DNA of 64,000 nucleotides from an uncultured candidatus Porisulfidus sp. (GTDB lineage Bacteria > Pseudomonadota > Gammaproteobacteria > Poriferisulfidales > Oxydemutatoraceae): assembly GCA_965215765.1 (NCBI GenBank), contig OZ244118.1:2484598-2548597 (forward strand). Reading direction: 5' to 3'. A program made the translations under genes and the position numbers. A model generated the notes under the pieces. The model was not told the origin of the DNA, ran no database searches, and was given only the letters and a program-made list of their open reading frames with translations. Below are positions 3,001 through 52,691 of the stretch, in pieces; within the stretch, counting starts at the first letter, position 1; each line of letters opens with the position of its first letter.

Positions 3001-3593
3001 AAAACTCTATGACAACGGTATCACCAGACACCGGGAACGCCACAAAGCTGCCATCATTACGTGACAAGCCGCGGCCCGTGTACTCTACGAGCCCTTCATT
3101 GCTGTCTCCGGCGGGGGCATAGACATTCACCGACATACCCGGGTCAAGGGGAAAACCAGAAAAATATAACCACAGCCGCAGGGCAGACGGAGAGCGAATC
3201 TGCGCCTGCCAGACATCAAGGCCGTCTTCCTGTTTGACCAGCGCCCAGTTGGAACGCCTTAACCGGACGTCCCGGGCAATGCTGGTGTAGTTGACCGTTG
3301 TCGCACGGAGCAGTACACGAATTTGCTCCTGTTCCCGGGTGCTGAAAGATCCCAAGTTCAGTTGCTGTGCGCGGTCAGGATACAGAGTTCGAGTGGCTTC
3401 CCGGGCATTCCTCCCCTCCGAAAAGGGATGGGACGCGAAGCCTTGTTCTGCCAGAGATTCCTGATCCTGGCCGAAAACGAGTGAGCTCGACGTGATGATA
3501 GATACACCCACGAACAGCCACTTCAGCCAACCATGGCTGCCGGAAATCTGCGTATCCGGAAATCTGAAATCTGCTTCTTTCATTGTGAATGCT
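1..3593 (-). CDS. Paralog A (3'-truncated by window edge): N-terminal ~1197 aa of a giant secreted S1-protease/GLUG-repeat/FN3 protein. Signal peptide MKEADFRFPDTQISGSHGWLKWLFVGVSIITSSSLVFG, then pro-region, protease domain and first GLUG block
   Basis: Manual reverse-complement translation from ATG (revcomp of cat at 3591-3593) runs open through at least ~1.9 kb checked by hand, with no stop found, and parallels paralog B residue by residue. It is not in the ORF track, probably because its stop lies beyond position 1. The leader upstream is identical to that of the other paralogs. Confidence 0.6.
300..1250 (-). repeat. Intragenic GLUG-motif coding repeat block 1 of paralog A (~78-81-bp units)
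   Basis: Periodic near-identical DNA units, seen as the repeating ADQTPNL/SGHCALCITVTDGSLV antisense pattern in plus ORF 2..832. Sense translation gives VGGLVGxNxGxIxNSYAxGxVxGDSQ units. Bounds are approximate. Confidence 0.45.
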
Positions 3594-3970
3594 TAGGAGC
3601 CATGCGGGCGGAGAAAAGAGAGCCTGACCACCCTGAGACATAAAATTCCCTGCACCGCATTCGCTATCTGTTCTCCATGGCTGCGCACTGAGCGATCCTC
3701 TGGCTCTGACCTTCACTCACTCTCTGATGTCCCAGTACGGCTGTACGCGGGCAGGATACAGAGTTCGAGTGGCTTCCCGGGCATTCCTCCCCTCCGAAAA
3801 GGGATGGGACGCGAAGCCTTGTTCTGCCAGAGATTCCTGATCCTGGCCGAAAACGAATGAACTCGACATGATGATGGGCACACCCACGAGCAGCCACTTC
3901 AGCCAACCATGGCTGCCGGAAATCTGCGTATCCGGAAATCTGAAATCTGCTTCTTTCATTGTGAATGCTT
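3594..3970 (-). repeat. One extra tandem copy of the ~377-bp 5' module (5'UTR + ATG + signal peptide + first ~70 codons) upstream of paralog A
   Basis: The sequence is nearly identical to the 5' end of gene A plus its leader. The junction motif ggctgtacgc|gggcaggatacag is present. Confidence 0.8.
3717..3959 (-). CDS. Upstream mini-ORF (80 aa) duplicating the signal peptide and N-terminus of the giant protein, ending ...LYPARVQPYWDIRE*
   Basis: ORF track entry MKEADFRFPDTQISGSHGWLKWLLVGVPIIMSSSFVFGQDQESLAEQGF... It has the same leader and start context as the real gene. The stop comes from leader sequence after the duplication junction. Confidence 0.35.
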   Translation of the reverse strand: MKEADFRFPDTQISGSHGWLKWLLVGVPIIMSSSFVFGQDQESLAEQGFASHPFSEGRNAREATRTLYPARVQPYWDIRE

Positions 3971-4149
3971 AGGAGCCATGCGGGCGGAGAAAAGAGAGCC
4001 TGACCACCCTGAGACATAAAATTCCCTGCACCACATTCGCTATCTGTTCTCCATGGCTGACGCACTGAGCGATCCTCTGGCTCTGACCTTCACTCACTCT
4101 CTGATGTCCCAGTACGGCTGTACGCGCCGAAAAATCACTTAGTTGGTTA

Positions 4150-4178
4150 ATTGTACAAAATAACGCCCAATCCGGCAA
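4150..4178 (-). promoter_or_regulatory. Sigma70-like promoter TTGCCG-N17-TACAAT for paralog A, preceded by an AT-rich UP-like tract
   Basis: Revcomp of 4150-4178 reads TTGCCGgattgggcgttattttgTACAAT. The same element with exact 17-nt spacing is conserved upstream of all five gene starts. It lies ~15 nt distal to the module junction, so there is a single promoter per gene. Confidence 0.45.
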
Positions 4179-4316
4179 ATTATTATAAGAAGATACCGGC
4201 CTCATCCGATCGAGAAACCCCGAAACCAGCATCGTGGTGTGCAGTTTTATTTATTGGCTTTTTGGTCTCCAGGGGAATGAATCAGTGACAATATGTCGGT
4301 ACTGCGACTTCTTGTT

Positions 4317-4469
4317 TTTAACCGCGAAAAACGTAAAAGTTGGTATTTGTAATTCGTATGATTTCAGTTTTGAGGTGGCTTCCAAAGTTCACCGAAAGCC
4401 CCAATTCAAGGCCTGTTGTTTTAAGACAATTCAATAGCTGTGCCTCATGTTCATCAGTAATGTTTGTCA
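4317..4469 (-). other. Possible 50-aa small ORF (MTNITDEHEAQLLNCLKTTGLELGLSVNFGSHLKTEIIRITNTNFYVFRG) in the AT-rich intergenic segment
   Basis: Manual translation. Intact copies also lie at 15759..15911 and 41485..41637. The ORF is truncated by an indel in the intergenic regions near 28100-28290 and 54060-54230. No start-site signals were identified. Confidence 0.12.
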
Positions 4470-4519
4470 TGGCAGATATAGTCAGGCTTATGGTCTTGCT
4501 TTAAAGGTTCACCCTCTGT

Positions 4520-5222
4520 GCCTTAAAAGAAATGCTCCTTGTGGAGAATTTCTTCTCCAGACACTCCTGATGCACTGCCTCAAGGAAAATACACCTCACT
4601 TCCCTGAACCGCATGGCATTCATCAGAAAACAAAATCTTTTCGTGTTTTTCGCGGTTATTAAACTCGTGATTTATAGTTCTCTCGCCAGTTGCCCGGGCT
4701 CTTCACCAAAGGAATGCCCCTTATGGAAAACTCCTTCTCCGGACGCTCCTGATGCACTGCCTCAAGGAAAATACACCTCACTTCCCTGAACCGCATGGCA
4801 TTCATCAGGAAATAAAAATTTTCGTATATTTCGCGGTTATTAAACTCATGGTTCATAGCTCTCTCGCCAGTTGCCCGGGCTCTTCACCAAAGGAATGCCC
4901 CTTATGGAAAACTCCTTCTCCGGACACTCCTGATGCACTGCCTCAAGGAAGATACACCTCACTTCCCTGAACCGCATGGCATTCATCAGAAAACAAAATC
5001 TTTTCGTGTTTTTCGCGGTTATTAAACTCGTGGTTCATAGCTCTCTCGCCAGTTGCCCGGGCTCTTCACCAAAGGAATGCCCCTTATGGAAAACTCCTTC
5101 TCCGGACACTCCTGGCGCACTGCCTCAAGAAAACCACAACCCCACTTCTCTGAACCGCATGGCATTCATCAGAAAACAAAATCTTTTCGTGTTTTTCGCG
5201 GTTATTAAACTCGTGTATGCCC
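4520..5222. repeat. Four tandem copies of a ~186-bp unit directly downstream of the paralog B stop codon
   Basis: Unit ...ctcctgatgcactgcctcaaggaaaatacacctcacttccctgaaccgcatggcattcatcagaaaacaaaatcttttcgtgtttttcgcggttattaaactcgtg... repeats with ~183-186-bp period. The most distal copy is degenerate. The unit begins ~20 nt after the stop. Confidence 0.8.
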
Positions 5223-8200
5223 TCAGCGAATCATGCCGCCCAGGAATACCCTCAGGCGCAATTTCTTGACGTGATGCGGGCCCGGCCTCGGCGTTGTCGG
5301 GATCTCGGGATCCCAGTTGATAAATTGACTCACTCCTGGCAGCTCAGCCACGCTGTCCAGGGGGAATGCCCGGACTTCGTACGCGACACCACCCTGCAGC
5401 CCCGTAAATTCCGTCCTGACGGCTCCCCCGGGTGTCGGCATCGCAACAGACTGTTCCTCTATCAGTTCCCCGTATGAAAGCAGTTGTACCCGATACCCCA
5501 AGCCGAGCAATATTCCATCAACCGGGGCTCCGAAATCAGCATGATCCGCAGTGCGTCCGTAGCCATCATTTCCCGAATATTGCAAGTGTACCTGCACACG
5601 ACCATTCGCCTTGTGCATCAGCTGCATGGCCAATGTTCCCTCAAGAACGTCGAGCAAGGTAAATGCTGCAGTGCTCATCGCGCCCGTTCCGGCACGGTTG
5701 ACTGCCCGGAGCGAATAGCGTATCTGCTCTCCTCCTGCGTGCTTCTTGCGCAGCTGCGCCAGGACATGGCCTGACAACACATAAGAAGTGGCGGTTCCCG
5801 AGACGGGGTGGCTTTTTCCGTCCACAAAAAGCTGGTAGCTGTCTATCATCGCCCCGTTGCTGCTCGCCGCTTCCCAACTCAGGTTCACCTGATCTACGGA
5901 CTTCCACCTGGCTCGCAAGCCCGAAGGTCTGCCAGGCACCGCTATGGTGCTGAACGCGCTCCTGTTTTCGGATGCCTGGGCAGGCTCCCCGGTGCCCGCC
6001 CGGTTGCGCGCATAGACCTGTAACGAATAGCTTCTCTTCGGCAGCAAGTCGGTGATCTCAATCTCGGCGTCAAAAGCACCTGCCGAGAAAAAGGTCTCGG
6101 TGCTGCGTCCTCCAGCACTCACAACCACCACGTAGCCAAAACCGGAGCCTGCAACGCGATCAGAAGAAGACGCAAGCGCATCACCCGCCAGGGGAGCGCA
6201 ATCGTCATGTCCCATGACCATCAACACCAGGCGCGCAGTGGTTTGGCCGGGCACCAGATCCGTTATCGTCGTCGCGCCCGGAAGACCGGGCAAATAGAAG
6301 TGACCGGCTGCCGGATAACCAGCGATATCTCCGCGCACAGCGCGAAGACGGTACGGGTGGGGGCAAGCCCCCTGTCTGTTTTTCCGAAACTCAGCCAGAA
6401 AATCTCCGTTGAAGTCAAAAGTCGGTGCTGTGACTTCCCGTATTGTTCCTGCCAGCTCAAGTTCGTAGGAATCAACCGCTGAACTTCCCGCCGCCCACGT
6501 GAAGCGCAAATGATCCGGAGATTCCCAGCTCACCGCCAAATCAACCGGTGTGGCAGGAATGTCAGCAATCGCGCGCAGCAAGGGTAACGTACGGGTATTG
6601 CCAAAATGCCAGACTTCCGGTTCCCAGCCGGCATAGGTCGTGGCATCTGCGCATCTCTGCCCCACAGCAGTCGGGCAACGCAACTGGGTCAGAGTGCGAG
6701 GTGAACTGCCGCCCGACGAGCCATTGCCCACCAAAGCTGCCTGTGCAGACACGGGTGCGTAACTGCGATCAATCACCGCATCCGGAGCAGAATAACCCGC
6801 CAGACTCCCGGTGCTGCCCGATTCCCCAACAACCCTGTTCGCTGCATAGCTGTCCTGTATGCGGCGGATATTGTTTCCGACCAGTCCCCCGATGGAGAAA
6901 TGACCCCGCACCTCACCGAGTGCATAGCTCGCATGGACAGAACCGGAGTTGATGCCCACCAGTCCGCCAATACGGCTATCTCCGCTGACCGACACGTCGG
7001 CATAGCTGTAGGCAATGGTGCTTCCGCTGTAGCCGACCAGACCGCCGGCGCGCGAGCCGTCCACAGCGATGGCCGAACCTGTCGCGTAACAGTGCAAAAT
7101 CGTGCTTCCCTGGCTATAGCCAACCAGACCGCCAGCATTGTCCCGCCCTTCACCCGAGACGCGCACCGCCGCATCGGCACTGCTGTACAAAATAGTGGCT
7201 CCCAGAGCCAGTCCGGCCAGACCACCGGCAGACTCAAGCGCGCGTACTTGCGAAGCCCTCACCGTGCTGCCCACGACCCGACCTTTTGCCTTCACATAAC
7301 CGACCAGACCGCCGACGTACCTGCCCCCGTCAACCTCGGCACTGGCACCACTGTCAATCAGCAAACCCCCGTTGCCACCCGCCAGCCCGCCAATGTTGGC
7401 TCCAGCTCTGCTGCCGGAAACCTGTGCAGACCTCACGACACTGTTCATGACGGTTCCGTCGTTAAAGCCGACCAAGGCTCCGACGCTGTTTTTTCCTTTT
7501 ACCCACGCATCAAGGAGCACCACTCCCTTGGCGATCCCGTCTTCTGCGAGTCTGGAAAACAGGCCAACCGTATCCGTCTCCGGGCGGTTAATGTGCAGAG
7601 CAGAGATTTGCCGCCCTGCCCCGTCGAAAGCGCCTGAAAAAGGCTCTATCGGATGAAAGCCGGCACCGCCTGACCACCCCCGACTCGGGCTGGCGTCAAT
7701 GTTTGCCACCTGCACATAGTGAGCGTACAGATCAGAGCGCACATCCTGCAGTTGGCACAGCGTGGCAATTTGCCACGGGTTGTTGTTGCTGCCGTCACCC
7801 GATGCACTCTTCAGGCCTTTGCCGACGCATCCCGGAAAGCTGGTCACCGCACGGATCGTTGACGGCGATCCGGTGCCCACCGTGTTATGGGCGAAGGCTT
7901 CCAGCCGATATGCAAAGGCACTCTCAAGCCCCGTAAATTCCATCGTGACCGGGCTCAGAGGATTCCCCAGCGGAATGTCGCGTTCTTCAACCAGCTCCCC
8001 GGACGCATACAGACGTATCCGGTAAGCCAGGTGCAAAGCCATGGCTTCCGCTGACGTTGCGTAATCAGCGTCAACCGGCCTGCGGCCATAGCCATCATTG
8101 GCAGGGGCTGTAAAGCTGAGTCTCAGCGTGGAGACCCCCTGCTCCACGCGCATATCAGCCGGAGAATCAGGAACATCCAGCAGGCGCACGGAAACACGGG

Positions 8201-11200
8201 CAGCCTCGCCAACACCATAAAGGTTGTAGCCACGAACCGTTAAAAAGAGCGTATTCCCGCCTTCATAACGGGCGCGCAGCTTCTGCAACCAGTCCGATCC
8301 TCCCACGTAGTACAACGATGCGGTTTCCTCAGCAGCGATCGATGGAGCCTCAATCCGGTAAGCGATCAGTTCTTTGGTGTGAAGCGGAGGCTCCCAACGC
8401 AGCAACAAGGAAGACGGGGATTTCCACTGCGCGAGCAGGCGCAAGGGTTTGCCAGGAGTCTCAAAGCCCCGCAGAACCGGCAGTGTCCTGTAATCTCCGA
8501 AAGACCAGATCTCGGCACTCCAGCCTGAGTATGTTGACCTTCCCGCACACGCCAGGCCGGGGGCAGTGGGGCAACGCAGTTGCTGCAGCGTCCGCAAGAA
8601 GCCTGATCCCTGCCCTGCGTCATCTGCCACAAAAGGCATGCCGCCGCCATTGCCGCGAGGCAACGCTGCCGCATAGCTGTCGGTGATGCCTCCCGGACTG
8701 CTGCCGGCAAAACTTCCAGGCTGTCCGGCTCCGGATACCGACCCTGCCGCGTAGCTGCGACTGACGGCGCCCTGATTGTCCGCCACAAGACCCGCGACCA
8801 GACCTTCCCCGGTCACAAAAGCTGTTGTGTAACTGTCAGTCACCGAGCCCAGGTTGTCTGCGACCAGACCACCCGCCCGAACTGCTCCTGACACCGAGCC
8901 TCCGGCATAGCTTGTATCAATACTCCCGGTTACCAGATTTCTCCCGACCAGGCCACCCGCTACTTGGCCTCCCGGCTCTGCCGCCAGCTGTGCCGCGCTG
9001 CCGCTAATCGTGCCTGCGTTGATACCGACGAGTCCTCCCGCCACTTGCCCGCCAAAAAGTGAGCCCGTCACCCCGCTGTTCACGATCCTTCCTCCCTCAT
9101 TCCTGCCCGCCAGGGCTCCCACGTTGACGCTTCCCCAAAGCTGCGCGTTCACCAGCACGACCTGCTGCAACAGACCGCCCTGAAGCTGCGCAAACATGCC
9201 GACATCTTCCATCGCCTCAGAGCGCACCTTTAAATGGAAAATCTGATGACCGGCACCATCAAGGGAACCGGAAAAATCAGCAATCGGCGCAAAGCCTTCT
9301 CCGGCTCGCCAGTCCCGGGATGGACCTGCCTCAATATCGCTTGCCAGCCGGTAGTGGGCTACAGGGGCAGAACGAATACCTTGCAATTGGCACAGCGTGG
9401 CAATCTGCCAGGGATCGTCCTCGCTGCCCGAGCCGCCCGAACCGCCTGCCGACATCAGGGCTTCCCCGTCGCACTGCCAGGGACGGGTAAATGCCGACAG
9501 GAAAAATGACGACCCTTCTCCAACATTGTTATAGGGTGTTGCCACCACTTCATAGAAGCTGTCGCTTGCCAGACCCGAAAATTCCACAACTGCGGATGTT
9601 TCGCCGGCTGTGTGCGCAAGCTCCCGTTCCTGCACGAGTTCTCCCCCGGCGTACAACCGTACCCGGTAACCCAGACCTGCGGGAACCCCGACACCCGTGT
9701 ATCCGTAAGCCGGGTCTTCCGGTGATTGGCCGTAGCCGTCGTCAGCCGGAGCCATAAGCAACACCTGCAGCGAAAATGCCTGCGCCGATGCCCGAACAAC
9801 CGTCAATTTGCCTGGGGCTCTCAGCAGCCTGATCACAACCGTCGTCGCTTCGCTCATGCCATGACGGTTATATCCACGTACGCTGACTTGCACGGTACTG
9901 CCCCTATATTCGGAACGGAGGCTTTGCAACAGGTGCCTGCCGAGCGTAAAAGATGCGGATCTCGTTTCCAGGGAACGCCCTGCCACCTCCACCCAATAGC
10001 CGGCGTTCAGACTTCCTGTTTTCGCAGCTGTCCAGTTCAGTTCCAGTTCACCTTCCAGGTTCCATTTCGCCTGCAGGCGCGAAGGGGGGGCAGGTGGCAC
10101 TGTTCGCAGGGCGCGATGAGCCGGAAGCGTCTGCTCGTCCCCGAAATACCAGACCTGTGTGCTCCAGCCGGAATAACTGACCGCTCCCTGACACGTGTCT
10201 CCCGGCAAAAGAGGGCACTGTAATTGCGCCAGCGTGCGGGAAAAATTGTTTTCTGTGGCATCCTCTTCCCCGCTGCCCACGAGTTGCAGCGCGCTGCTGC
10301 CGACACCCGGCTCCAGCGCGTAATTTGCAGCCATATCGGTGCCTTCGGAATACCCCACCAGCATGCCCGCCTGATTGTTCCCGCTAACCAGACCAGCCGC
10401 ATAACTGTCGTCAATCCTGATGTTGTTGTCGGTGCTGCGCTCACTGTTCCCCGCCAAGCCGCCCACCTGCTCATTTCCGCTTACCGAACCAGTCGCATAG
10501 CTGTCGTCAATCGAGCCGTACCTGCTTTCTCCCACCAAGCCGCCCACCTGCTCATTTCCGCTGACCGCTCCGGTCGCATGGCTTCTGAGGATTGACCCTG
10601 AGCTGAGGCCCGCCAGACCACCCACACTATTTCCTTCGCTGACAACCGTGCTGTCCGAGTGGCTGTCAACTATGGAATTGGAATTGTGGTTACCCGCCAG
10701 CCCGCCCACATCTTCTACCCCGCTGACCGCTCCTGCCGAATAAGAGCCGCTTATAAAGCCATAGTTATTACCCACCAGTCCGCCTACATATTGATGCCCG
10801 CTCACCGTTGACTGCGCGTGGCTGTGATAGATCGAAGCTTCGTTGGCTCCCACCAGTCCACCAACACTGCTTGCGCCGCTCACACCTCCTCTCGCGTACG
10901 AACTGCGTATCCTCGCGCCCCACGCATTCCAGCCCACCAGTCCGCCTATTGTGTTGCCGTGCCACCGGACAGTGGTCGTTCCGACAACGGCAGACTCCGA
11001 ATGGCTGAGCTCGATCAGCCCATGGTTCTCACCCGCTACTCCTCCCACACGTCTCCGACCGCCTATCAACCCCGTCACCGTGCTGCCATTGATGCTTCCA
11101 TTTGCCTCAACGCTTCCTGCCAGGGCTCCTGTTGCATCTCTGCCCCGTACTGTGACATTCACGAGTGCCAGCCTTTGCAGGGCACCCCCGCTGAGCTTCC

Positions 11201-14200
11201 CGAACAGCCCGACATGGTCTGTTTGCCCAGGATTGATCAAAAGATTCAGAACGCTGTGACCACTCCCGTCCAGAGAGCCGGAAAAAAATTCAATCGGAGG
11301 AAAACCCTTTCCGTCTCGCCACTCGTGGCTTTGCTTCGCGTCTATATCGTTTGCCAGCCGATAATGCGCTGCCGTGTCGTAACGCATTTCATGCAACTGG
11401 CAAAGTGTACCGACCTGCCAGGAGTCATCCTCGCTGCCAGAGCCTGCTGCTGTTATCACCGCTGCCCGTGGACACGCCTCAACGTAGGTGAAAATCGGTG
11501 CTATCACCGTTGTTGAGCCTGTGCCCGCCTTGTTTCTGGCAAACACCCTGACTTCGTACCTGGAACCACCTTCCAGGCCTGAAAATTCCACTACGGTCGA
11601 ACTTGACCATTCCTGCTGCGTCATGCGCCGATCTTCTTTCAACCGGCTTTTTGAAAACAGTTGCACGTGGTATGCGAGATCCAGAGCAACTCCGCCTGCC
11701 GGCTCCCCGTACGCGCTGCTGCCCAGAGCGTGTCCGTAGCCGTCAGTAGCAGCCTCGGTAATGGTGACCCGTATTGTCGACAGCCCCGAAGCTGTCTGGG
11801 TCCCCACCACCCCCGGAACTTTCATCAAATGGAAACTTCCCGACGCTGCATCTCCCGCAACGCCTCCTTTTACGCCGCGTATGGAATAGTGAATTTCACT
11901 GCCGCTGGCGTAACGCTCACGCAATTCAGCCATCAATGTATCGTCAAGCGAGAAACGGGATACCTTGGTGTCTCGAATGATTCCGCCCACCTCCACCTCA
12001 AAGGAACTCACGGCAACTCCTTGATGCCACCCCCAGTGCAGCGTCAATCCATCCGTCAAATTCCAGCTTTCCCGGACTGCAATCGGTGCAACGGGAACAT
12101 CCGCAAGCACCCGGAGCACAGGCAGCATGCGGAAGTGCCCGAAGTGCCAAATCCGCGTATCCCAACCCAGATACACGCCAGCTGCCCGACAAAGATTGAC
12201 GGGCAACATCGAGCACTTCATTTGCTCCACGGTGCGCAAATCACTGCCCTGTACTGCACCGTTATCCTTGCCCACCAGGCTGTCCCCGTCGCCCAGCTTG
12301 CTGGCATAACTGCGGGCTATCGTGCCACCGTTGACTCCGACCAGCCTGCCCGACAAATCAGTTCCTCCTACAGCACCAGTGCTATAGGCACTTCTGACCA
12401 AGCCGCTGTTTACTCCCGCCAGTCCACCTGTCTGACTGCCTCCGGTCACTGCACCTTGTGCGTAGCTGTTGCTGAGGCTTCCTTTGTTTTCGCCGACCAG
12501 TCCGCCTGTCTGACTGTCTCCGGTCACTGTGCCTCGTGCATAACTGTCACTGATGTTTCCTTTGTTTTCGCCGACCAGACCCCCGACCTTGTTCTTTCCA
12601 CTCACACGTGCTTGTCCTGCTGTGCTGCCATTCACGACGCTGGCATTTTCCAGGTTCACTCCTACCAGCCCACCTGTCTGACTGCCTCCGGTCACTGCGC
12701 CTTGTGCATGGCTGTTCACGATGGTTCCCTTGTTTACTCCCGCCAGCCCGCCTGTCTGACTGTCTCCGGTCACTGCGCCTCGTGCATAACTGTTACCGAT
12801 GCTTCCCTTGTTTCCGCCGACCAGACCCCCAACCTTGTTCTTTCCACTCACACGTAATTCCAGGACTGCATGGCTACTCACGATGCTGGCGTTGCTTTCG
12901 CTCACACCCACCAGACCGCCCACCTGACTGTCTCCGGCCACTGTGCCTTGTGCATAACTGTTACCGATGTTTCCCTTGTTTACGCCGACCAGACCCCCAA
13001 CTTGATCCTTCCCACTCACACGTGCATATCTGGCTGTATGGCCATTCACGATCCTGGCTTCGTTCACACCCACCAAGCCCCCAACCCCGCGGGCTGCTCC
13101 GACAACATGGATATTCGCGTAGCGGTTGCTGTCATGGCCCTTCATGTAGCTGTCACTGATGGTGCCGCCAAGGTGCCAACCCACCAGACCACCCACGTAC
13201 GCGTAGCCCCATATAGAGTCGGTTCCGGTCACATCTCCATTCGCATGGCTGGAAGTGACCGAACCCCTGTTTTTGCCCACCAGACCTCCGACTTGATTGC
13301 CTCCTGTTACTGCCCCCACCGCTTGACTGCCTACAATCGTGCCACCGTCGTTCTGACCCACCAGACCTCCGGCAACATACGTGTCGCTAGAGTTCTCCCC
13401 AACCCTTACCAATGCCACGCTGTTGCGGATGACACCGCCCTGATTCAGACCAACCAGCCCACCGATGGTTCTGTCCCCGTCAACCTTGCCATCAACCTCG
13501 CTGTCCTCAATCGTCCCCCGATCGTTCAGCCCAACCAGAGAACCGACATTCGCTCCGCCTTTCGTCACAAAATTCACCAGCTTCACGCGCTTCAGCAATC
13601 CACCCTGCAGCATGCCAAACAGCCCTATATTCTCGAATGCTTCGTCTGTTGTGTTGACCTTCAAATTGGAAATCTTGTAACCGTTGCCATCATAAGTGCC
13701 AGAAAAATCCTTGATCGGTGTAAAACCGTTTTTCCAGCCATGCGTCATCGTCGTTGCGTCTATATCCTTGATCTGGACGTAGTGCGACTGGGGCGATGCT
13801 TCCACATCGCGCAAATGGCATGCGTTTTCTACCTGGTAGGGATCACTTTCAGTTCCGGAACCTGCCATGGCCTGCGAACTTGCAGCACACGCGAGCTCAG
13901 GATCCATATAGGGAAATTGGCTGCCGTTGTAATAGGTGTCTCCGTAATTGAGAAGGTTGAAGGCTCTTTCGTCCGCATAAATCCCGCCCATTCCATCACC
14001 GTACATAATGCATGTTCCGTATCCAGGGATCGGCTGGGATGTTTGAATCCCTATCACCAAGCCGGTCTTTTTATAAAATGCGGATGAACCGGACGCTCCA
14101 TGCGTAGGAGAGATGCCCTTATACTTTAAACTTATGCTCCCGCACACTCCTTCGCAGAAAGGCAGGATGCCTCCGTCGCCCCATAGTCTTTCAAACTCAC

Positions 14201-15401
14201 CCCACTGCTGAGGCCTGGAGCCAGCGTGGTGTACGGAGTAACCACTGAATTTAACGGTAGTGCGGGTCTCCCACCCCAACAATTTATAATCTCCGCTCTT
14301 GAACCCGACAAGCCGTCCAACAAGACGCACAATCCCCCAATCCCCACCATCACCACCATGCTTCCGTGGTTTCTTTCCTGCCACGTACCTCATACCGAAG
14401 GCGTATGAACCACCAAGAGTAGTGACGAAGAATCGCAAAAACGGCTTGTCCGCAGCGTTAGTGTCCACTTCAGGGAAAAGGTGAAACGCTGTCAGAATGT
14501 AGGGAGCTCCATCACCCGACTTGTTCTTTATAAAAGTCCCAGTCCCGCAGCCACCACCATTGTCAGAATGGCTGCACAATTTTACGACACCTTTGGTTAC
14601 ATCCCGCACGTAAGCCGGGCTCTCGCTGTTTACATAGTTGTTCTTACCGGGTCGACGCCAAGTGCCTGCGCGCACGCAACTGTCGGCTTGCCTCGGAGGC
14701 GCCAGGTTCCTGATTCCCTCTCCGTATAAAACCCCGTTGTTATCCTTGAATGTGTGCCCCACTTTTTCGACCGAAAAAGGAAAATCGCCTGGTTCCAGGT
14801 GGTAACTGTCCGGAACCCAAAACTCTATGACAACGGTGTCACCAGACACCGGGAACGCCACAAAGCTGCCATCATTACGTGACAAGCCGCGACCCGTGTA
14901 CTCTACGAGCTCTTGATTGCTGTCTCCGGCGGGTGCATAGACATTCACCGACATACCCGGGTCAAGGGGAAAACCAGAAAAATATAACCACAGCCGCAGG
15001 GCAGACGGAGAGCGAATCTGCGCCTGCCAGACATCAAGACCATCTTCCTGTTTGACCAGTGCCCAGTTGGAACGCCTTAACCGGACGTCCCGGGCAATGC
15101 TGGTGTAGTTGACCGTTGTCGCACGAAGCAGTTCACGAATGCGCTCCTGTTCCTGCGTGCTGAAAGATCCCAAGTTCAGTTGCTGTGCGCGGGCAGGATA
15201 CAGAGTTCGAGTGGCTTCCCGGGCATTCCTCCCCTCCGAAAAGGGATGGGACGCGAAGCCTTGTTCTGCCAGAGATTCCTGATCCTGGCCGAAAACAAAT
15301 GAACTCGACATGACGATGGGCACACCCACAAGCAGCCACTTCAGCCAACCATGGCTACCGGAAATCTGCGTACCCGAAAATCTGAAACCTGCTTCTTTCA
15401 T
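5223..15401 (-). CDS. Paralog B: giant secreted protein, 3392 aa. Signal peptide, pro-region, trypsin-like S1 serine protease domain, then 4x (linker + GLUG-motif repeats + FN3-like domains)
   Basis: Uninterrupted 10.2-kb ORF. It has a hydrophobic N-terminal signal (WLKWLLVGVPIVMSSSFVFG|QDQ) and S1 catalytic motifs (CGTGTFI...ILTAFH, DWGIVRL, GASGSSAFY). There are dozens of GGLVG GLUG units and FN3 signatures (YEVRVFARNKAGTG, YSLQVYARNRAGTG). The stop TGA is revcomp of tca at 5223-5225. Confidence 0.9.
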   Translation of the reverse strand: MKEAGFRFSGTQISGSHGWLKWLLVGVPIVMSSSFVFGQDQESLAEQGFASHPFSEGRNAREATRTLYPARAQQLNLGSFSTQEQERIRELLRATTVNYTSIARDVRLRRSNWALVKQEDGLDVWQAQIRSPSALRLWLYFSGFPLDPGMSVNVYAPAGDSNQELVEYTGRGLSRNDGSFVAFPVSGDTVVIEFWVPDSYHLEPGDFPFSVEKVGHTFKDNNGVLYGEGIRNLAPPRQADSCVRAGTWRRPGKNNYVNSESPAYVRDVTKGVVKLCSHSDNGGGCGTGTFIKNKSGDGAPYILTAFHLFPEVDTNAADKPFLRFFVTTLGGSYAFGMRYVAGKKPRKHGGDGGDWGIVRLVGRLVGFKSGDYKLLGWETRTTVKFSGYSVHHAGSRPQQWGEFERLWGDGGILPFCEGVCGSISLKYKGISPTHGASGSSAFYKKTGLVIGIQTSQPIPGYGTCIMYGDGMGGIYADERAFNLLNYGDTYYNGSQFPYMDPELACAASSQAMAGSGTESDPYQVENACHLRDVEASPQSHYVQIKDIDATTMTHGWKNGFTPIKDFSGTYDGNGYKISNLKVNTTDEAFENIGLFGMLQGGLLKRVKLVNFVTKGGANVGSLVGLNDRGTIEDSEVDGKVDGDRTIGGLVGLNQGGVIRNSVALVRVGENSSDTYVAGGLVGQNDGGTIVGSQAVGAVTGGNQVGGLVGKNRGSVTSSHANGDVTGTDSIWGYAYVGGLVGWHLGGTISDSYMKGHDSNRYANIHVVGAARGVGGLVGVNEARIVNGHTARYARVSGKDQVGGLVGVNKGNIGNSYAQGTVAGDSQVGGLVGVSESNASIVSSHAVLELRVSGKNKVGGLVGGNKGSIGNSYARGAVTGDSQTGGLAGVNKGTIVNSHAQGAVTGGSQTGGLVGVNLENASVVNGSTAGQARVSGKNKVGGLVGENKGNISDSYARGTVTGDSQTGGLVGENKGSLSNSYAQGAVTGGSQTGGLAGVNSGLVRSAYSTGAVGGTDLSGRLVGVNGGTIARSYASKLGDGDSLVGKDNGAVQGSDLRTVEQMKCSMLPVNLCRAAGVYLGWDTRIWHFGHFRMLPVLRVLADVPVAPIAVRESWNLTDGLTLHWGWHQGVAVSSFEVEVGGIIRDTKVSRFSLDDTLMAELRERYASGSEIHYSIRGVKGGVAGDAASGSFHLMKVPGVVGTQTASGLSTIRVTITEAATDGYGHALGSSAYGEPAGGVALDLAYHVQLFSKSRLKEDRRMTQQEWSSSTVVEFSGLEGGSRYEVRVFARNKAGTGSTTVIAPIFTYVEACPRAAVITAAGSGSEDDSWQVGTLCQLHEMRYDTAAHYRLANDIDAKQSHEWRDGKGFPPIEFFSGSLDGSGHSVLNLLINPGQTDHVGLFGKLSGGALQRLALVNVTVRGRDATGALAGSVEANGSINGSTVTGLIGGRRRVGGVAGENHGLIELSHSESAVVGTTTVRWHGNTIGGLVGWNAWGARIRSSYARGGVSGASSVGGLVGANEASIYHSHAQSTVSGHQYVGGLVGNNYGFISGSYSAGAVSGVEDVGGLAGNHNSNSIVDSHSDSTVVSEGNSVGGLAGLSSGSILRSHATGAVSGNEQVGGLVGESRYGSIDDSYATGSVSGNEQVGGLAGNSERSTDNNIRIDDSYAAGLVSGNNQAGMLVGYSEGTDMAANYALEPGVGSSALQLVGSGEEDATENNFSRTLAQLQCPLLPGDTCQGAVSYSGWSTQVWYFGDEQTLPAHRALRTVPPAPPSRLQAKWNLEGELELNWTAAKTGSLNAGYWVEVAGRSLETRSASFTLGRHLLQSLRSEYRGSTVQVSVRGYNRHGMSEATTVVIRLLRAPGKLTVVRASAQAFSLQVLLMAPADDGYGQSPEDPAYGYTGVGVPAGLGYRVRLYAGGELVQERELAHTAGETSAVVEFSGLASDSFYEVVATPYNNVGEGSSFFLSAFTRPWQCDGEALMSAGGSGGSGSEDDPWQIATLCQLQGIRSAPVAHYRLASDIEAGPSRDWRAGEGFAPIADFSGSLDGAGHQIFHLKVRSEAMEDVGMFAQLQGGLLQQVVLVNAQLWGSVNVGALAGRNEGGRIVNSGVTGSLFGGQVAGGLVGINAGTISGSAAQLAAEPGGQVAGGLVGRNLVTGSIDTSYAGGSVSGAVRAGGLVADNLGSVTDSYTTAFVTGEGLVAGLVADNQGAVSRSYAAGSVSGAGQPGSFAGSSPGGITDSYAAALPRGNGGGMPFVADDAGQGSGFLRTLQQLRCPTAPGLACAGRSTYSGWSAEIWSFGDYRTLPVLRGFETPGKPLRLLAQWKSPSSLLLRWEPPLHTKELIAYRIEAPSIAAEETASLYYVGGSDWLQKLRARYEGGNTLFLTVRGYNLYGVGEAARVSVRLLDVPDSPADMRVEQGVSTLRLSFTAPANDGYGRRPVDADYATSAEAMALHLAYRIRLYASGELVEERDIPLGNPLSPVTMEFTGLESAFAYRLEAFAHNTVGTGSPSTIRAVTSFPGCVGKGLKSASGDGSNNNPWQIATLCQLQDVRSDLYAHYVQVANIDASPSRGWSGGAGFHPIEPFSGAFDGAGRQISALHINRPETDTVGLFSRLAEDGIAKGVVLLDAWVKGKNSVGALVGFNDGTVMNSVVRSAQVSGSRAGANIGGLAGGNGGLLIDSGASAEVDGGRYVGGLVGYVKAKGRVVGSTVRASQVRALESAGGLAGLALGATILYSSADAAVRVSGEGRDNAGGLVGYSQGSTILHCYATGSAIAVDGSRAGGLVGYSGSTIAYSYADVSVSGDSRIGGLVGINSGSVHASYALGEVRGHFSIGGLVGNNIRRIQDSYAANRVVGESGSTGSLAGYSAPDAVIDRSYAPVSAQAALVGNGSSGGSSPRTLTQLRCPTAVGQRCADATTYAGWEPEVWHFGNTRTLPLLRAIADIPATPVDLAVSWESPDHLRFTWAAGSSAVDSYELELAGTIREVTAPTFDFNGDFLAEFRKNRQGACPHPYRLRAVRGDIAGYPAAGHFYLPGLPGATTITDLVPGQTTARLVLMVMGHDDCAPLAGDALASSSDRVAGSGFGYVVVVSAGGRSTETFFSAGAFDAEIEITDLLPKRSYSLQVYARNRAGTGEPAQASENRSAFSTIAVPGRPSGLRARWKSVDQVNLSWEAASSNGAMIDSYQLFVDGKSHPVSGTATSYVLSGHVLAQLRKKHAGGEQIRYSLRAVNRAGTGAMSTAAFTLLDVLEGTLAMQLMHKANGRVQVHLQYSGNDGYGRTADHADFGAPVDGILLGLGYRVQLLSYGELIEEQSVAMPTPGGAVRTEFTGLQGGVAYEVRAFPLDSVAELPGVSQFINWDPEIPTTPRPGPHHVKKLRLRVFLGGMIR
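12250..13600 (-). repeat. Intragenic GLUG-motif repeat block 1 of paralog B
   Basis: ~26-27-aa units QVGGLVGxNKGxIxNSYAxGTVTGDSQTGGL are repeated more than 12 times. DNA units are ~80 bp. Bounds are approximate. Confidence 0.5.
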
Positions 15402-16309: not shown

Positions 16310-19300
16310 TTAGCGAACCATACCGCCCAGGAACGCTCTCAGGCGCAATTTCTTGACGTGATGCGAACCTGGTCTCGGCGTCGTCGGAATCTCGGGATCC
16401 CAGTTGATAAACTGCCTCACTCCTGGCAGCTCAGCCGCGCTGTCCCGGGGAAATGCCCGGACTTCGTACGCAACACCACCCTGTAGCCCCGTAAATTCTG
16501 TCTTGACGGCTCCCCCGGGTGTCGGCATCGCAACAGACTGCTCCTCTATCAGTTCTCCGTACGAAGGCAGTTGTACCCGATACCCCAAGCCGAGCAATAT
16601 TCCGTCAACCGGGGCACCGAAATCAGCATGATCCGCAGTGCGTCCATAGCCATCATTTCCCGAATATTGCAAGTGTACCTGCACACGACCATTCGCCTTG
16701 TGTATCAGCTGCATGGCCAATGTTCCCTCAAGAACGTCGAGCAAAGTAAATACCGCCGTACCCATCACGCCCGCTCCGGCACGATTGACTGCCCAGAGCG
16801 AATAGCGTATCTGCTCTCCTCCTGCATACATATTACGCAGTTGCGCCAAGACATGGCCTGACAACACATAAGAAGTGGCGGTTCTTGTGCTCGGGTGGCT
16901 TTTCCCGTCCACGGAAAGCTGGTAGCTGTCTATCGTCGCCCCGTTGCTGCTCGCCGCTTCCCAACTCAGGTTCACCCGGTTTGTGGACTCCCACCTGGCT
17001 CGCAAGTCTGAAGGTTTGCCAGGTGCCGCTATGGTGCTGAACGCGCTCCTGTTTTCGGATGCCTGGGCGGGCTCCCCGGTGCCCGCCCGGTTGCGCGCAT
17101 AGACCTGTAACGAATAGCTTCTCTTCGGCAGCAAGTCGGTGATCTCAATCTCGGTGTCAAAAGCACCTGCCGAGAAAAAGGTCTCGGTGCTGCGTCCTGC
17201 GGCACTCACAACCACCACGTAGCCAAAGCCTGTGAGCATGGCGTAGTCAGGTGAAGTCGCCAGGGAAGCGCAATCGCCATATCCCATGGTCGTCAACACC
17301 AGGCGCGCAGTGGTTTGACCGGGCACCAGCTCCGTTATCGTCGTCGCGCCCGGAAGACCGGGCAAATAGAAGTAAGCGGCTGCCTGATAACCAGCGACAT
17401 CTCCGTGTATAGCGCGAAGACGGTACGGGTGGGGGCAAGCCTCTTGCTTGTTTTTCCGAAACCCGGCCAGAAAATCTCCGTCAAAGTCAAAAGTCGGAGC
17501 TGTGACCTCCCGTATTGTTCCTGCCAGTTCAAGTTCGTACGAATCAACCGCTGGACTTCCCGCCGCCCAAGTGAAGCGCAGATGATCCGGAGATTCCCAG
17601 CTCACCGCCAAATCAACCGGTGTGGCAGGAATATCGGCAAGCGCGCGCAGCAAGGGCAACGTGCGGGTATTGCCAAAATGCCAGGCTCCCGGTTCCCAGC
17701 CGGCATAAGTCGTGGCACCTGCGCATCTCTGCCCCGCCGCAGTCGGGCAACGCAGCTGGGTCAGAGTGCGAGGTGAAGAGCCATCCGTTGAGCCATTGCC
17801 CACCAAAGATGCCTGTGCAGACACGGGTGCGTAACTGCGATCAATCACCGCATCCGGAGCAGAATAACCTGCCAGACTCCCGGTGCTGCCCGACTCCCCA
17901 ACAACCCTGTTCACCGCATAGCTGTCCTGAATGCGGCGGATATTGCTTCCGACCAACCCCCCGGTGATGGAGCGACCCCGTACCTCACCGAGTGCATAGC
18001 TCGCATGGACAGAACCGGCGTTGATGCCCGCCAGTCCGCCAACACGATCAGCTCCGCTGACTGACACGTCGGCATAGCTGTAGGCAATGGTGCTTCCGCT
18101 GTAGCCGACCAGACCGCCGGCGCGCGAGCCGTCTACAACGATGGCCGAACCTGTCGCGTAACAGTGCAAAATCGTGCTTCCCTGGCTATAGCCAACCAGA
18201 CCGCCAGCATTGCCCCGCCCTTCACCCGAGACGCGCACCGCCGCGTCGGCACTGCTGTGCAAAATAGCGGCTCCCAGAGCCAGGCCAGCCAGACCGCCGG
18301 CAGACTCAAGCGCGCGTACTTGTGAATCCCTCACCGTGCTGCCCACGACCCGACCTTTTGCTTTCACATAACCGACCAGACCGCCGACGTATCTGCCCCC
18401 GTCAACCTCGGCACTGGCACCACTGTCAACCAGTAATCCTCCGTTGCCACCCGCCAGCCCGCCAATGTTGACTCCGGCTCTGTTGCCGGAAACCTGTGCA
18501 GACCTCACGACGCTGTTCATGACGGTTCCGTCGTTAAAGCCGACCAAAGCTCCGACGCTGTTTTTTCCTTTTACCCACGCATCAACGAGCACCACTCCCT
18601 TGGCGATCCCGTCTTCTGCGAGTCTGGAAAACAGGCCAACCGTATCCGTCTCCGGGCGGTTAATGTGCAGAGCAGAGATTTGCCGCCCTGCCCCGTCGAA
18701 AGTGCCTGAAAAGGACTCTATCGGATGAAAACCGGCGCCGCCTGACCACTCCCGACTCGGGCTGGCGTCAATATCTGCCACCTGCACATAGTGAGCGTGC
18801 AGATCAGAGCGCACATCCTGCAGTTGGCACAACGTGCCAATTTGCCACGGGTTGTTGTTGCTGCCGTCACCCGATGCACTCTTCAGACCCTTGCCTGCGC
18901 ATCCCGGAAAGCTGGTCACCGCCCGGATCGTTGACGGCGATCCGGTGCCCACCGTGTTATGGGCGAAGGCTTCCAGCCGATATGCAAAGGCACTCTCAAG
19001 CCCCGTAAATTCTATCGTGACCGGGTTCAGAGGACTCCCCAGCGGAATGTCGCGTTCTTCAACCAGCTCCCCGGTCGCATACAGACGTATTCGGTAAGCC
19101 AGGTGCAAAGCCATGGCTTCCGCTGACGTTGCGTAATCAGCGTCACCCGGTTTGCGACCGTAGCCGTCATTGGCCGGGGCTGTAAAGCTGAGTCTCAGCG
19201 TGGAGACCCCCGGCACCACGCGCATATCAACCGGAGAATCAGGAACATCCAGCAGGCGCACGGAAACACGGGCAGCTTCGCCAACACCATAAAGGTTGTA

Positions 19301-39142: not shown

Positions 39143-39276
39143 TGTGAATGCTTAGGAGCCATGCGGACGGAGAAAAGAGAGCCTGACCGCCCTGAGACAT
39201 AAAATTCCCTGCACCACATTCGCTATCTGTTCTCCATGGCTGACGCACTGAGCGTTCCTCTGGCTCTGACCTTCAC

Positions 39277-39522
39277 TTACTCTCTGATGTACCAGCACGG
39301 CTGTACGCAGGCAGGATACAGAGTTCGAGTGGCTTCCCGGGCATTCCTCCCCTCCGAAAAGGGATGGGACGCGAAGCCTTGTTCTGCCAGAGATTCCTGA
39401 TCCTGACCGAAAACGAATGAACTCGACGTGATGATGGATACACCCACCACGAGCAAGTACTTCAGCCAGACACGGCTGCCGGAAATCTGCGCATCCGGAA
39501 ATCTGAAACCTGCTTCTTTCAT
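39277..39522 (-). CDS. Upstream mini-ORF (81 aa)
   Basis: MKEAGFRFPDAQISGSRVWLKYLLVVGVSIITSSSFVFGQDQESLAEQGF... Confidence 0.35.
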   Translation of the reverse strand: MKEAGFRFPDAQISGSRVWLKYLLVVGVSIITSSSFVFGQDQESLAEQGFASHPFSEGRNAREATRTLYPACVQPCWYIRE

Positions 39523-39656
39523 TGTGAATGCCTACGAGCCATGCGGGCGGAGAAAAGAGAGCCTGACCACCCTGAGACATAAAATTCCCTGCACCACATT
39601 CGCTATCTGTTCTCCATGGCTGACGCGCTGAGCGATCCTCTGGCTCTGACCTTCAC

Positions 39657-39902
39657 TCACTCTCTGATGTCCCAGTACAGCTGTACGCGGGCAGGATACA
39701 GAGTTCGAGTGGCTTCCCGGGCATTCCTCACCTCCGAAAAGGGATGGGACGCGAAGCCTTGTTCTGCCAGAGATTCCTGATCCTGTCCGAAAACGAATGA
39801 ACTCGACGTGATGATGGATACACCCACCACGAGCAAGTACTTCAGCCAGACACGGCTGCCGGCAATCTGCGCATCCGGAAATCTGAAATTTGCTTTTTTC
39901 AT
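39657..39902 (-). CDS. Upstream mini-ORF (81 aa)
   Basis: MKKANFRFPDAQIAGSRVWLKYLLVVGVSIITSSSFVFGQDQ... Confidence 0.35.
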   Translation of the reverse strand: MKKANFRFPDAQIAGSRVWLKYLLVVGVSIITSSSFVFGQDQESLAEQGFASHPFSEVRNAREATRTLYPARVQLYWDIRE

Positions 39903-40036
39903 TGTGAATGCTTAGGAGCCATGCGGACGGAGAAAAGAGAGCCTGACCACCCTGAGACATAAAATTCCCTGCACCACATTCGCTATCTGTTCTCCATGGC
40001 TGACGCACTGAGCGTTCCTCTGGCTCTGACCTTCAC

Positions 40037-40279
40037 TTACTCTCTGATGTCCCAGCACGGCTGTACGCAGGCAGGATACAGAGTTCGAGTGGCTTCCCGG
40101 GCATTCCTCCCCTCCGAAAAGGGATGGGACGCGAAGCCTTGTTCCGCCAGAGATTCCTGATCCTGTCCGAAAACGAATGAACTAGACGTGACGATGGATA
40201 CACCTACGAGCAAGTACTTCAGCCAACCATGGCTGCCGGAAATCTGCGCATCCGGAAATCTGAAACCTGCTTCTTTCAT
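40037..40279 (-). CDS. Upstream mini-ORF (80 aa)
   Basis: MKEAGFRFPDAQISGSHGWLKYLLVGVSIVTSSSFVFGQDQ... Confidence 0.35.
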   Translation of the reverse strand: MKEAGFRFPDAQISGSHGWLKYLLVGVSIVTSSSFVFGQDQESLAEQGFASHPFSEGRNAREATRTLYPACVQPCWDIRE

Positions 40280-40413
40280 TGTGAATGCTTAGGAGCCATG
40301 CGGGCGGAGAAAAGAGAGCCTGACCACCCTGAGACATAAAATTCCCTGCACCACATTCGCTATCTGTTCTCCATGGCTGACGCGCTGAGCGATCCTCTGG
40401 CTCTGACCTTCAC

Positions 40414-40656
40414 TCACTCTCTGATGTCCCAGTACAGCTGTACGCGGGCAGGATACAGAGTTCGAGTGGCTTCCCGGGCATTCCTCACCTCCGAAAAGGG
40501 ATGGGACGCGAAGCCTTGTTCTGCCAGAGATTCCTGATCTTGGCCAAAAACGAGTGAGCTTGATGTGATGATGGATACACCCACGAGCAGCCACTTCAGC
40601 CAACCATGGCTGCCGGAAATCTGCGCATCCGGAAATCTGAAATTTGCTTTTTTCAT
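40414..40656 (-). CDS. Upstream mini-ORF (80 aa)
   Basis: MKKANFRFPDAQISGSHGWLKWLLVGVSIITSSSLVFGQDQ... Confidence 0.35.
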   Translation of the reverse strand: MKKANFRFPDAQISGSHGWLKWLLVGVSIITSSSLVFGQDQESLAEQGFASHPFSEVRNAREATRTLYPARVQLYWDIRE

Positions 40657-40790
40657 TGTGAATGCTTAGGAGCCATGCGGACGGAGAAAAGAGAGCCTGA
40701 CCACCCTGAGACATAAAATTCCCTGCACCACATTCGCTATCTGTTCTCCATGGCTGACGCACTGAGCGTTCCTCTGGCTCTGACCTTCAC

Positions 40791-52558: not shown

Positions 52559-52691
52559 TGTGAATGCTTAGGAGCCATGCGGGCGGAGAAAAGAGAGCAT
52601 AGCCCGCCTGCGGCATAAAACTCTTGGCACAATATTCACCTTCTGTTCTCCTGGCTGACGCACTGAGCGATCTTCTGGCTCTGACCTTCAC

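Follow-up and report, generated by a model that had tools for sequence, protein, structure and literature searches.

Lysyl endopeptidases (Lys-C) such as Achromobacter protease I and Lysobacter Lys-C (PDB entries 1ARB, 4NSV and 9OMD) are made with a signal peptide, a propeptide of about 200 residues, a protease domain of about 260 residues and a C-terminal extension, which in Achromobacter protease I measures about 180 residues and is removed on maturation. Type Va autotransporters of Gram-negative bacteria (the IgA1 proteases of H. influenzae and Neisseria, the SPATEs and Hap) are exported via Sec and carry an N-terminal chymotrypsin-like protease on a beta-helical stalk; in the serine IgA1 protease of H. 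influenzae the chymotrypsin-like domain is joined to a beta-helix (PMC9637739). The 64,000-nucleotide stretch of contig OZ244118.1 analysed here (the window) contains a giant gene, gene A, whose product is by homology a member of peptidase family S1, in its Lys-C-like branch, fused to a long stalk of GLUG and FN3-like repeats. What is new is that this uncommon fusion has been amplified into a tandem array with variable heads. Beyond the first-pass annotation of the same DNA, which had described a single giant protein with an N-terminal protease and four GLUG/FN3 modules, we observed a prepro-enzyme N-terminus, at least six tandem paralogs with variable heads, a conserved C-terminal tail and arrays of 5' stubs.

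Gene A resembles Lys-C in that propeptide and protease are both homologous and the catalytic His, Asp and Ser are in register. Unlike Lys-C, it has an extension of about 2900 residues of GLUG and FN3-like repeats, its identity to 1ARB is about 15-22%, Cys58 and Cys80 are not conserved, and the clade found in the window has inserts of its own (PFCEGxxC and a YGDTYYN extension). Compared with the type Va autotransporters, gene A is without a C-terminal beta-barrel translocator and ends in FN3-like sequence and a tail of 12 residues; its protease is Lys-C-like with a large propeptide (S1, not S6), and its stalk would consist of four GLUG helices interleaved with FN3, not of one pertactin-like helix. 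The product is not a member of the autotransporter family, yet by analogy it probably works most like a protease on a beta-helical stalk.

The M26 IgA1 metalloproteases of Gram-positive cocci (ZmpA; 6XJA, 6XJB and 7JGJ) have a GLUG-containing region in common with gene A. In gene A, however, this helix occurs four times, and the catalytic domain, a serine protease, lies at the other end of the protein, the N-terminus. HExxH is absent in all paralogs, Pfam matches the model of the M26 N-terminal region only and finds no M26 catalytic domain, and the NCBIfam ZmpA model scores 34.5 bits on protein A against a cutoff of 3000. Judged by these motifs and profiles, the gene A product is not an M26 protease.

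VesB of Vibrio cholerae is an S1 protease with a GlyGly-CTERM, a signal made up of a signature motif, a hydrophobic helix and a basic cluster, and its surface display depends on rhombosortase and the type II secretion system (PMC6219818). It is similar to gene A in being a gammaproteobacterial S1 protease with a Sec signal, and its short C-terminal element is needed for surface retention. The 12-residue tail in the window has no hydrophobic helix (maximum Kyte-Doolittle hydropathy 0.72), so that the gene A product is, on this pattern, not a GlyGly-CTERM substrate. It differs likewise from the giant RTX adhesins of the type I secretion system, since RTX nonapeptides are absent (motif search and Pfam) and the N-terminus is of the Sec type.

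Gene A is a single intact open reading frame (ORF) on the minus strand, as seen in the ORF list and the translation; it measures 3392 aa, somewhat less than the approximately 3500 aa first reported. Over the whole protein, Pfam returned Glug with E 6.6e-53 (174 bits in 11 stretches, cutoff 20.5), fn3 with E 3.3e-26 and Peptidase_M26_N with E 2.2e-7. Its parts, in which pLDDT is the predicted local distance difference test of the structure model, are as follows.

5223..15401, minus strand: giant gene A (ORF translation; Pfam Glug, fn3 and Peptidase_M26_N)
15288..15401, minus strand: signal-peptide-like N-terminus, aa 1-38 (hydropathy and charge; pLDDT <50 for residues 1-55)
14682..15239, minus strand: propeptide-like domain, aa ~55-240 (profile match to 9omd_I; pLDDT 85-95)
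13872..14681, minus strand: S1 chymotrypsin-fold, Lys-C-like protease domain, aa 241-510 (homology and modelled fold; most variable block)
14481..14483, minus strand: codon of the predicted catalytic His307 in ILTAFH (invariant column, aligned with 1ARB H57; kept in every paralog that covers the site)
14340..14342, minus strand: codon of the predicted catalytic Asp354 in GDWGIVRL (invariant column, aligned with 1ARB D113)
14091..14093, minus strand: codon of the predicted catalytic Ser437 in GASGSS (invariant column, aligned with 1ARB S194; 6/6 copies)
12120..13871, minus strand: module 1, GLUG repeat region, aa 511-1094 (Pfam Glug E 1e-38 in 8 stretches; 13 GGLVG cores)
11460..12119, minus strand: module 1, FN3-like pair, aa 1095-1314 (fn3 26.9 bits; internal repeat of a ~200-aa unit)
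10122..11459, minus strand: module 2, cap and GLUG region, aa 1315-1760 (Glug E 1.8e-22; Peptidase_M26_N E 6.9e-5; 6xjb E 2.2e-7)
9450..10121, minus strand: module 2, FN3-like pair, aa 1761-1984 (fn3 22.7 bits, just below the cutoff of 25; internal repeat)
8478..9449, minus strand: module 3, short GLUG region, aa 1985-2308 (Pfam Glug E 8.2e-6)
7770..8477, minus strand: module 3, FN3-like pair, aa 2309-2544 (Pfam fn3 27.2 bits)
6582..7769, minus strand: module 4, GLUG region, aa 2545-2940 (Pfam Glug E 6.3e-24)
5262..6581, minus strand: module 4, about four FN3-like domains, aa 2941-3380 (fn3 E 7.7e-16, 58.5 bits in 2 stretches; internal repeats)
5226..5261, minus strand: conserved C-terminal tail LRLRVFLGGMIR (common to all paralogs, the related giant genes of a metagenome-assembled genome, and short relatives)

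The protease head

The motifs from which an N-terminal S1 protease had first been proposed are all present (ILTAFH with H307, DWGIVRL with D354 and GASGSSAFY with S437) and align to the catalytic triad of 1ARB. Assignment to the chymotrypsin fold nevertheless needed chaining of profiles and a structure model, since protein A has no direct Pfam match to S1. Paralog D alone reaches Pfam Trypsin_2 (28.0 bits against a cutoff of 27.6, full-length on the profile), and no such match was obtained for paralog B. No protease was found when PDB sequences were searched by phmmer and by a shallow profile of the clade, a word-indexed search with the N-terminus of protein A returned six close fragments only, all from ENA assemblies, and AlphaFold with a 9-sequence clade alignment gave an unusable model (pLDDT 34).

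An exhaustive search with the clade profile reached 598 proteins at E<=1e-3, many of which cover profile positions ~120-450 in one stretch. Among the relatives scanned with Pfam, Trypsin_2 was found in 34/55 and Trypsin in 17/55. In an alignment of 24 sequences, with A as the first row, the sole invariant columns are C242, H307, D354, H392, G435, S437 and G438, and the family profile built from it matched 1ARB in the PDB with E 1.5e-45, also 4NSV and 9OMD, and weakly VesB and VesC. As this profile included sequences of the window, a control profile was restricted to the 11 typical relatives that are most distant. Protein A reached 132.6 bits on it (E 9e-43, residues 117-457), whereas no shuffled sequence out of 1000 exceeded 9.5 bits; the scores were 107-125 bits for the remaining paralogs and 185 bits for 1ARB. 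On this profile H57, D113 and S194 of 1ARB land on H307, D354 and S437 in every paralog.

The structure prediction of the N-terminus is in agreement with these alignments. With the deeper alignment AlphaFold (AF2) gave a model of pLDDT 75.6, in which the prodomain and the core of the protease are mostly above 85. The top 50/50 Foldseek matches of this model in the PDB were chymotrypsin-fold serine proteases, including Esp/V8 and DegP/DegS; 1arb matched with a target-normalised TM-score of 0.65 over 275 columns.

The region in front of the protease is consistent with a zymogen. The propeptide part of the family profile matches 9omd_I, 'Lysyl endopeptidase propeptide', with E 4.2e-6, the control profile of distant relatives already aligns within this region, from residue 117 of protein A, and in precomputed annotation PF27052 (Lysyl_endopep_N) is weakly flagged on relatives. 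Further upstream, residues 1-38 look like a Sec signal peptide: the sole hydrophobic window in the 3392 residues is centred on residues 25-32, the n-region is net-positive (K2, R7 and K21) and V-x-G stands at positions -3/-1 before QDQ; a lipobox Cys is absent from this N-terminus. The pattern fits the earlier proposal of an exported giant protein. On homology and the modelled fold we conclude that residues ~55-510 correspond to an entire pro-enzyme that belongs to the Lys-C-like branch of S1; lysine specificity is not claimed.

The disulfide cysteines of 1ARB are C6, C12, C36, C58, C80 and C216. In the window C58 is replaced by L, A or S and C80 by L or P, C6, C12 and C36 are not aligned to Cys, and the position of C216 is Cys in some copies only. 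Asp225, in the S1 pocket, is the residue of 1ARB that gives Lys specificity. The local alignment stops before this segment in all paralogs; aligned by eye, and thus unreliably, the position is D in A and W or Y in the other copies. Since the Asp225 segment is not alignable, specificity for Lys is not implied, and a claim that the enzyme is lysine-specific was rejected.

The stalk, the tail and the tandem array

Two sequence landmarks that recur along the protein, 'GSG..D.[YW]Q' and 'W.FG...LP', were used to divide the stalk into modules, which were scanned one by one with Pfam. The four GLUG/FN3 modules described in the first-pass annotation were all recovered: the GLUG parts match Glug with E 1e-38, 1.8e-22, 8e-6 and 6e-24, and the second parts match fn3 with 26.9, 22.7, 27.2 and 58.5 bits, of which only module 2 stays below the cutoff of 25. 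An internal double unit of ~200 aa is present in a single copy in each of the first three modules and in two copies in module 4, so that the stalk has about ten FN3-like domains. The proposed link between the GLUG motif and IgA1-protease-type proteins was also borne out, by Peptidase_M26_N (model positions 147-250) and by an alignment of module 2 to chain residues 125-337 of the S. pneumoniae IgA1 protease (6XJB/6XJA/7JGJ; E 2.2e-7). If the chain of that protease starts at about residue 665, as we assume, the match falls in NTD2. NTD2 of the IgA1 metalloprotease is a beta-helix that serves as scaffold and as gate of the active site (PMC9637739).

The architecture had been called unusual, and the survey of homologs agrees with this. 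A search with the GLUG modules gave 3543 matches, named 'GLUG motif-containing protein' where named, and a trypsin-family Pfam domain was present in 0 of the best 120 of these; conversely, GLUG occurs in only 1/55 of the protease-family relatives. On this basis the fusion of protease and GLUG/FN3 is uncommon among the homologs surveyed, although its parts are ordinary individually. No literature was found that pairs the GLUG motif with a serine protease, or that joins lysyl endopeptidase, propeptide and C-terminal extension.

At its far end the protein is FN3-like over the last 452 aa, and the final residue is Arg, not an aromatic residue. There is no membrane-spanning stretch (maximum Kyte-Doolittle hydropathy over 19 residues of 0.72 in the last 60 aa), and LPxTG, RTX repeats (GGxGxDxUx), an autotransporter barrel and a tripartite CTERM signal were not found in protein A by Pfam, NCBIfam and motif searches. 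Instead, the giant proteins share a tail of 12 residues with the consensus LR/K-L-R/K-VFL-G/E-G-xx-R/Q; it is formed by the last 12 codons of B-E as well as of A and is found at loci L001-L004 of a metagenome-assembled genome (MAG) described below. The giant genes of the window and of the MAG end in LR/K-L-R/K-VFLGGM[IV]R. Like tails are carried by the short relatives P0017 (418 aa) and P0022 (548 aa) and by a 478-aa ORF of locus L007 (tail at L007:16554-16592), and P0024-P0030 end in ...VFLEGALQ. The domain preceding the tail differs, being FN3, cadherin-like or the protease domain itself, and at the loci examined every protein with the tail belonged to this protease family, none of them lacking the protease. 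Other short relatives (P0018, P0020 and P0032-34) end instead in GlyGly-CTERM-like tails, consisting of a Gly-run, a hydrophobic stretch and basic residues. The 12-residue tail had no NCBIfam match at E<=10, a metagenome scan for KVFLEG[AP]LQ-stop gave 0 matches, and no literature on it was found. The conserved tail is a candidate element for holding or sorting the protein.

The window is a head-to-tail, minus-strand array of at least six giant genes, all of which are intact as far as they are visible. Besides gene A these are:

1..3583, minus strand: paralog Z, start at 3583, running off the left edge (1194 codons visible, no stop; tblastn map and translation)
16310..26659, minus strand: paralog B (3449 aa)
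28490..39142, minus strand: paralog C (3550 aa)
41843..52558, minus strand: paralog D (3571 aa), with the protease domain that reaches Pfam Trypsin_2
54411..64000, minus strand: paralog E (>3196 aa), N-terminus beyond the right edge

Identity between the paralogs is about 90% in the signal peptide, the prodomain and the stalk, against about 60% in the protease domain (aa 241-510); the propeptide-like domain taken by itself is likewise ~90% identical. By the Nei-Gojobori method, the nonsynonymous (dN) and synonymous (dS) divergence of the protease domain are 0.234 and 0.300, with a ratio (omega) of 0.78, compared with dN ~0.05, dS ~0.14 and omega ~0.33 for the prodomain plus modules 3-4; modules 2-4 have omega ~0.3-0.45. 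In the protease domain the changes and indels cluster in predicted loops, with indels of up to ~14 residues near aa 400-415 and 453-470, whereas the triad-bearing strands are conserved. H, D, S and G-x-S-G-S are kept in the six copies and in the 24 aligned relatives, although the rest of the domain has diverged by ~40%. Omega is ~1.0 in six variable segments, which were chosen after viewing the alignment and in which dS is raised too; since the segments were picked post hoc and dS is also raised there, positive selection on the protease loops was rejected as a claim. We therefore describe the head as diverged, unhomogenised and apparently under relaxed or diversifying constraint, positive selection not being proven. 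The stalk varies in another way. Module 1 contains 13, 15, 18, 18 and 19 GGLVG cores in A, B, C, D and E, and its DNA tandem repeats of 78, 162 and 168 bp (12419-13058, 23481-24256, 35964-36759, 49433-50182 and 61600-62773) encode GLUG rungs; as GLUG copy number differs among the paralogs, so would the length of the stalk.

Among 185,579 species genomes, relatives were found only in one MAG of the Candidatus Oxydemutatoraceae (Gammaproteobacteria), the independent complete chromosome OZ243039.1 of 1.9 Mb. At four loci (47-66% identity) it holds seven or more giant paralogs, of which some are tandem copies and which carry Glug, fn3 and M26_N as in the window: L003 has three giant genes in tandem and L004 two, and at L001 the giant gene is split into ORFs of 1422 aa and 2096 aa by a frameshift or an assembly error; the fourth locus is L002. 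The closest proteins, to which no source gives a name, come from the ENA assemblies ERZ25071281 and ERZ24894577. On a 1.3-Mb contig of ERZ24894577 (L007:10001-16592), three shorter tandem paralogs of 548, 954 and 478 aa are followed by an unannotated ORF of 154 aa; the block sits between ribH and nusB, and the 954-aa copy has cadherin-like domains, not GLUG/FN3. More generally, the C-terminal domains of family relatives are assorted (PPC, BACON and cadherin-like; Pfam, 55 scanned). No relatives were found on viral contigs. Oxydemutator thiolithooxidans is a symbiont of the sponge Stylissa (PMC11685487), and judging by these relatives the source bacterium is probably a sponge symbiont as well.

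Proposed function and alternatives

We propose, with a probability of roughly 60%, that gene A encodes a Sec-exported, Lys-C-like zymogen whose head is retained on the ~2900-aa stalk, with the paralogs as a panel of specificities and host proteins as targets. After Sec export the propeptide would assist folding and keep the protease inactive, and would then be cleaved off, as in Achromobacter protease I. The mature head would stay on the stalk, separated by tens of nanometres from the site that holds the C-terminus; in this sense we infer, with the first-pass annotation, that the protease may be held away from the cell. Surface display of an S1 protease that carries a C-terminal tag has a precedent in VesB. 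Gene conversion would keep the shared scaffold uniform while the substrate-binding loops have diverged, so that the six or more paralogs together would cover a range of specificities. The likely targets would be proteins of the host's matrix or surface, since the lineage is one of sponge symbionts, for which FN3-type 'eukaryotic-like' domains are characteristic. Retention of the head is favoured over its release because the stalk is under purifying selection in at least six copies, which would be costly if it were disposable, and because a strongly conserved element is found at the far C-terminus.

Several observations weigh against this proposal. Neither Pfam nor NCBIfam gives an S1 match to protein A, even at E<=10, and the clade profile against 1ARB by hhalign is not significant (E 0.075), so the S1 assignment of protein A rests on transitive homology and on a model from a mixed alignment. 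The Pfam scan that the first-pass annotation had proposed for its claim thus returned Glug and fn3 for this protein and no S1 family, an outcome that taken alone would have gone against the protease. Protein A yielded no anchor, translocator or sorting domain of a known kind, and the genes next to the related loci are of the housekeeping type, none being for secretion or sorting. The raised dS of the protease segment leaves diversifying selection not demonstrated. Achromobacter protease I sheds its C-terminal extension, so that the head of the gene A product may leave its stalk too. Finally, surface display, activity and substrates are predictions from the sequence and from analogy with known systems.

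The alternative that survives best, though we consider it unlikely, is that the function lies in the stalk, which would be an adhesin or a fibre that binds matrix, and that the protease serves only its own maturation or release, cutting itself or neighbouring molecules from the cell. Such GLUG modules are very common in large surface proteins without a protease (the 3543 matches), adhesins typically have FN3-like domains and repeats that vary in number (here 13-19 GLUG cores in module 1), and self-cleavage could take place in the K/R-rich tail and linkers. If the stalk held the binding specificity, however, it would be expected to diversify, and the opposite is observed: the head diversifies on a stalk that is ~90% identical. 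In a protease that processes itself, moreover, conservation would be expected both of the enzyme and of the site that it cuts. It is this variable head on a uniform stalk that counters the adhesin most strongly.

Slightly less probable still is a free secreted protease, whose C-terminal extension would be an aid to secretion or folding that is cut off and has no function as a stalk. The homology to the prepro-enzyme of lysyl endopeptidase, the extension of which is shed, and the assortment of C-terminal domains on the relatives (PPC, BACON, cadherin-like) would both agree with it. Yet some 2900 disposable residues in at least six intact copies would be very costly, the more so as the related MAG measures only 1.9 Mb; modules 2-4 are under purifying selection (omega ~0.3-0.45), and the conserved tail suggests a role for the extreme end of the protein.

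We regard it as very improbable that the head is a catalytically dead pseudo-protease acting as a binding domain. The high omega (0.78) and the many loop indels of the domain would allow for this, as would the loss of most 1ARB cysteines, the unalignable Asp225 segment and the missing direct Pfam match for A, but H, D, S and G-x-S-G-S are invariant in the six copies and the 24 relatives, and the propeptide, needed only by an active enzyme, is kept. Least probable of all is that the array arose as an artefact of assembly or represents a repeat family that is decaying and unexpressed, for although the region is highly repetitive and the closest relatives come from metagenome assemblies, one of them at 3x coverage, the copies differ by 8-40%, are all intact over 3189-3571 codons and have a stalk omega well below 1, and the family is also found in tandem elsewhere, both in other assemblies and in a MAG that is an independent complete chromosome.

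Stub arrays, spacers and the meaning of the array

Upstream of Z, B, C and D, extra copies of the 5' end of the gene are found in tandem (1, 3, 5 and 3 units, respectively):

3741..3959, minus strand: 5' stub with one 80-aa ORF, upstream of Z
26660..27935, minus strand: three 5' stub units upstream of B, 380-bp period
39143..41126, minus strand: five 5' stub units upstream of C, 377-bp period
52559..53853, minus strand: three 5' stub units upstream of D, 377-bp period

Each unit of 377-380 bp covers about -158..+219 of the gene and contains an intact ORF of 80-81 aa (111 aa in one unit), which consists of the signal peptide plus 42 residues and ends in QP[CY]WDIRE; the predicted peptide reads QDQESLAEQGFASHPFSEGR... 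The 11 copies are free of frameshifts, and their ratio of nonsynonymous to synonymous polymorphism (pN/pS) is 0.41 versus 0.51 for the genes' own 5' ends. Stub-like ORFs also exist as database proteins (P0023, P0036 and P0037). In the closest relative (L006:305-1528) there are five 102-aa ORFs with a period of 305 bp, other breakpoints and ATGA stop/start overlaps, and no stub arrays were found at the MAG loci. By eye, a microhomology of ~10 nt (CCCTG[CT]GCGT) is seen at about -165 (15560-15600) and at codons 70-73 (e.g. 15183-15194), coinciding with the boundaries of the 377-bp stub units; it is possible that this was the seed of the original tandem duplication.

The intergenic spacers are homologous to one another, ~716 bp long and of 46% GC. 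Two elements recur in them:

3960..5222, minus strand: spacer from A to Z, 46% GC, with the 182-bp element x3.8 at 4526-5215 and a PDDEXK_3 remnant at 4318-4470
4526-5215, 15967-16302, 28341-28480, 41693-41835 and 54262-54403: sites of the 182-bp element

The 182-bp element lies directly 3' of the stop codon of every giant gene, in ~4 copies after A, 2 after B and 1 each after C, D and E; as RNA it does not fold better than shuffled sequences (z -1.27). The 50-aa ORF at 4318-4470 on the minus strand is what is left of a PD-(D/E)XK nuclease gene, matching PDDEXK_3 with E 9.6e-8 over no more than profile positions 79-117 of 117. It is present at the homologous position of each spacer (e.g. ~15790-15940) and is thus carried in every repeat unit. 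Scans for promoters and terminators stayed at chance level, and no Rfam families or tRNAs were found. Long plus-strand ORFs lie opposite the giant genes (2-832, 1013-2254, 11661-12857, 12870-14087 and others, up to 413 aa); read by eye, these are not genes but repetitive antisense readings of the G-rich repeats that encode GLUG.

A more far-reaching proposal, which we hold to be speculative and rather doubtful, would join all these elements in one repertoire system. In this system a surface-displayed array of proteases, with stalks made uniform by gene conversion and heads kept different, would be aimed at host proteins; the tail would be a new, non-tripartite sorting or attachment signal that replaces GlyGly-CTERM among these proteases, and the stub ORFs, possibly translationally coupled, would tune expression or give small secreted peptides.

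The retained-head proposal set out above, if true, would mean that a probable sponge symbiont with a small genome invests over 64 kb in fibres that are tipped with a protease and vary chiefly at that tip. It would provide a candidate mechanism by which an extracellular symbiont edits the matrix or the surface proteins of its host, and a natural case of one scaffold bearing many specificities. An unannotated metagenomic protein family has here been tied to the well-studied enzyme Lys-C, and the conserved C-terminal tail is flagged as what may be a new signal for export or attachment.

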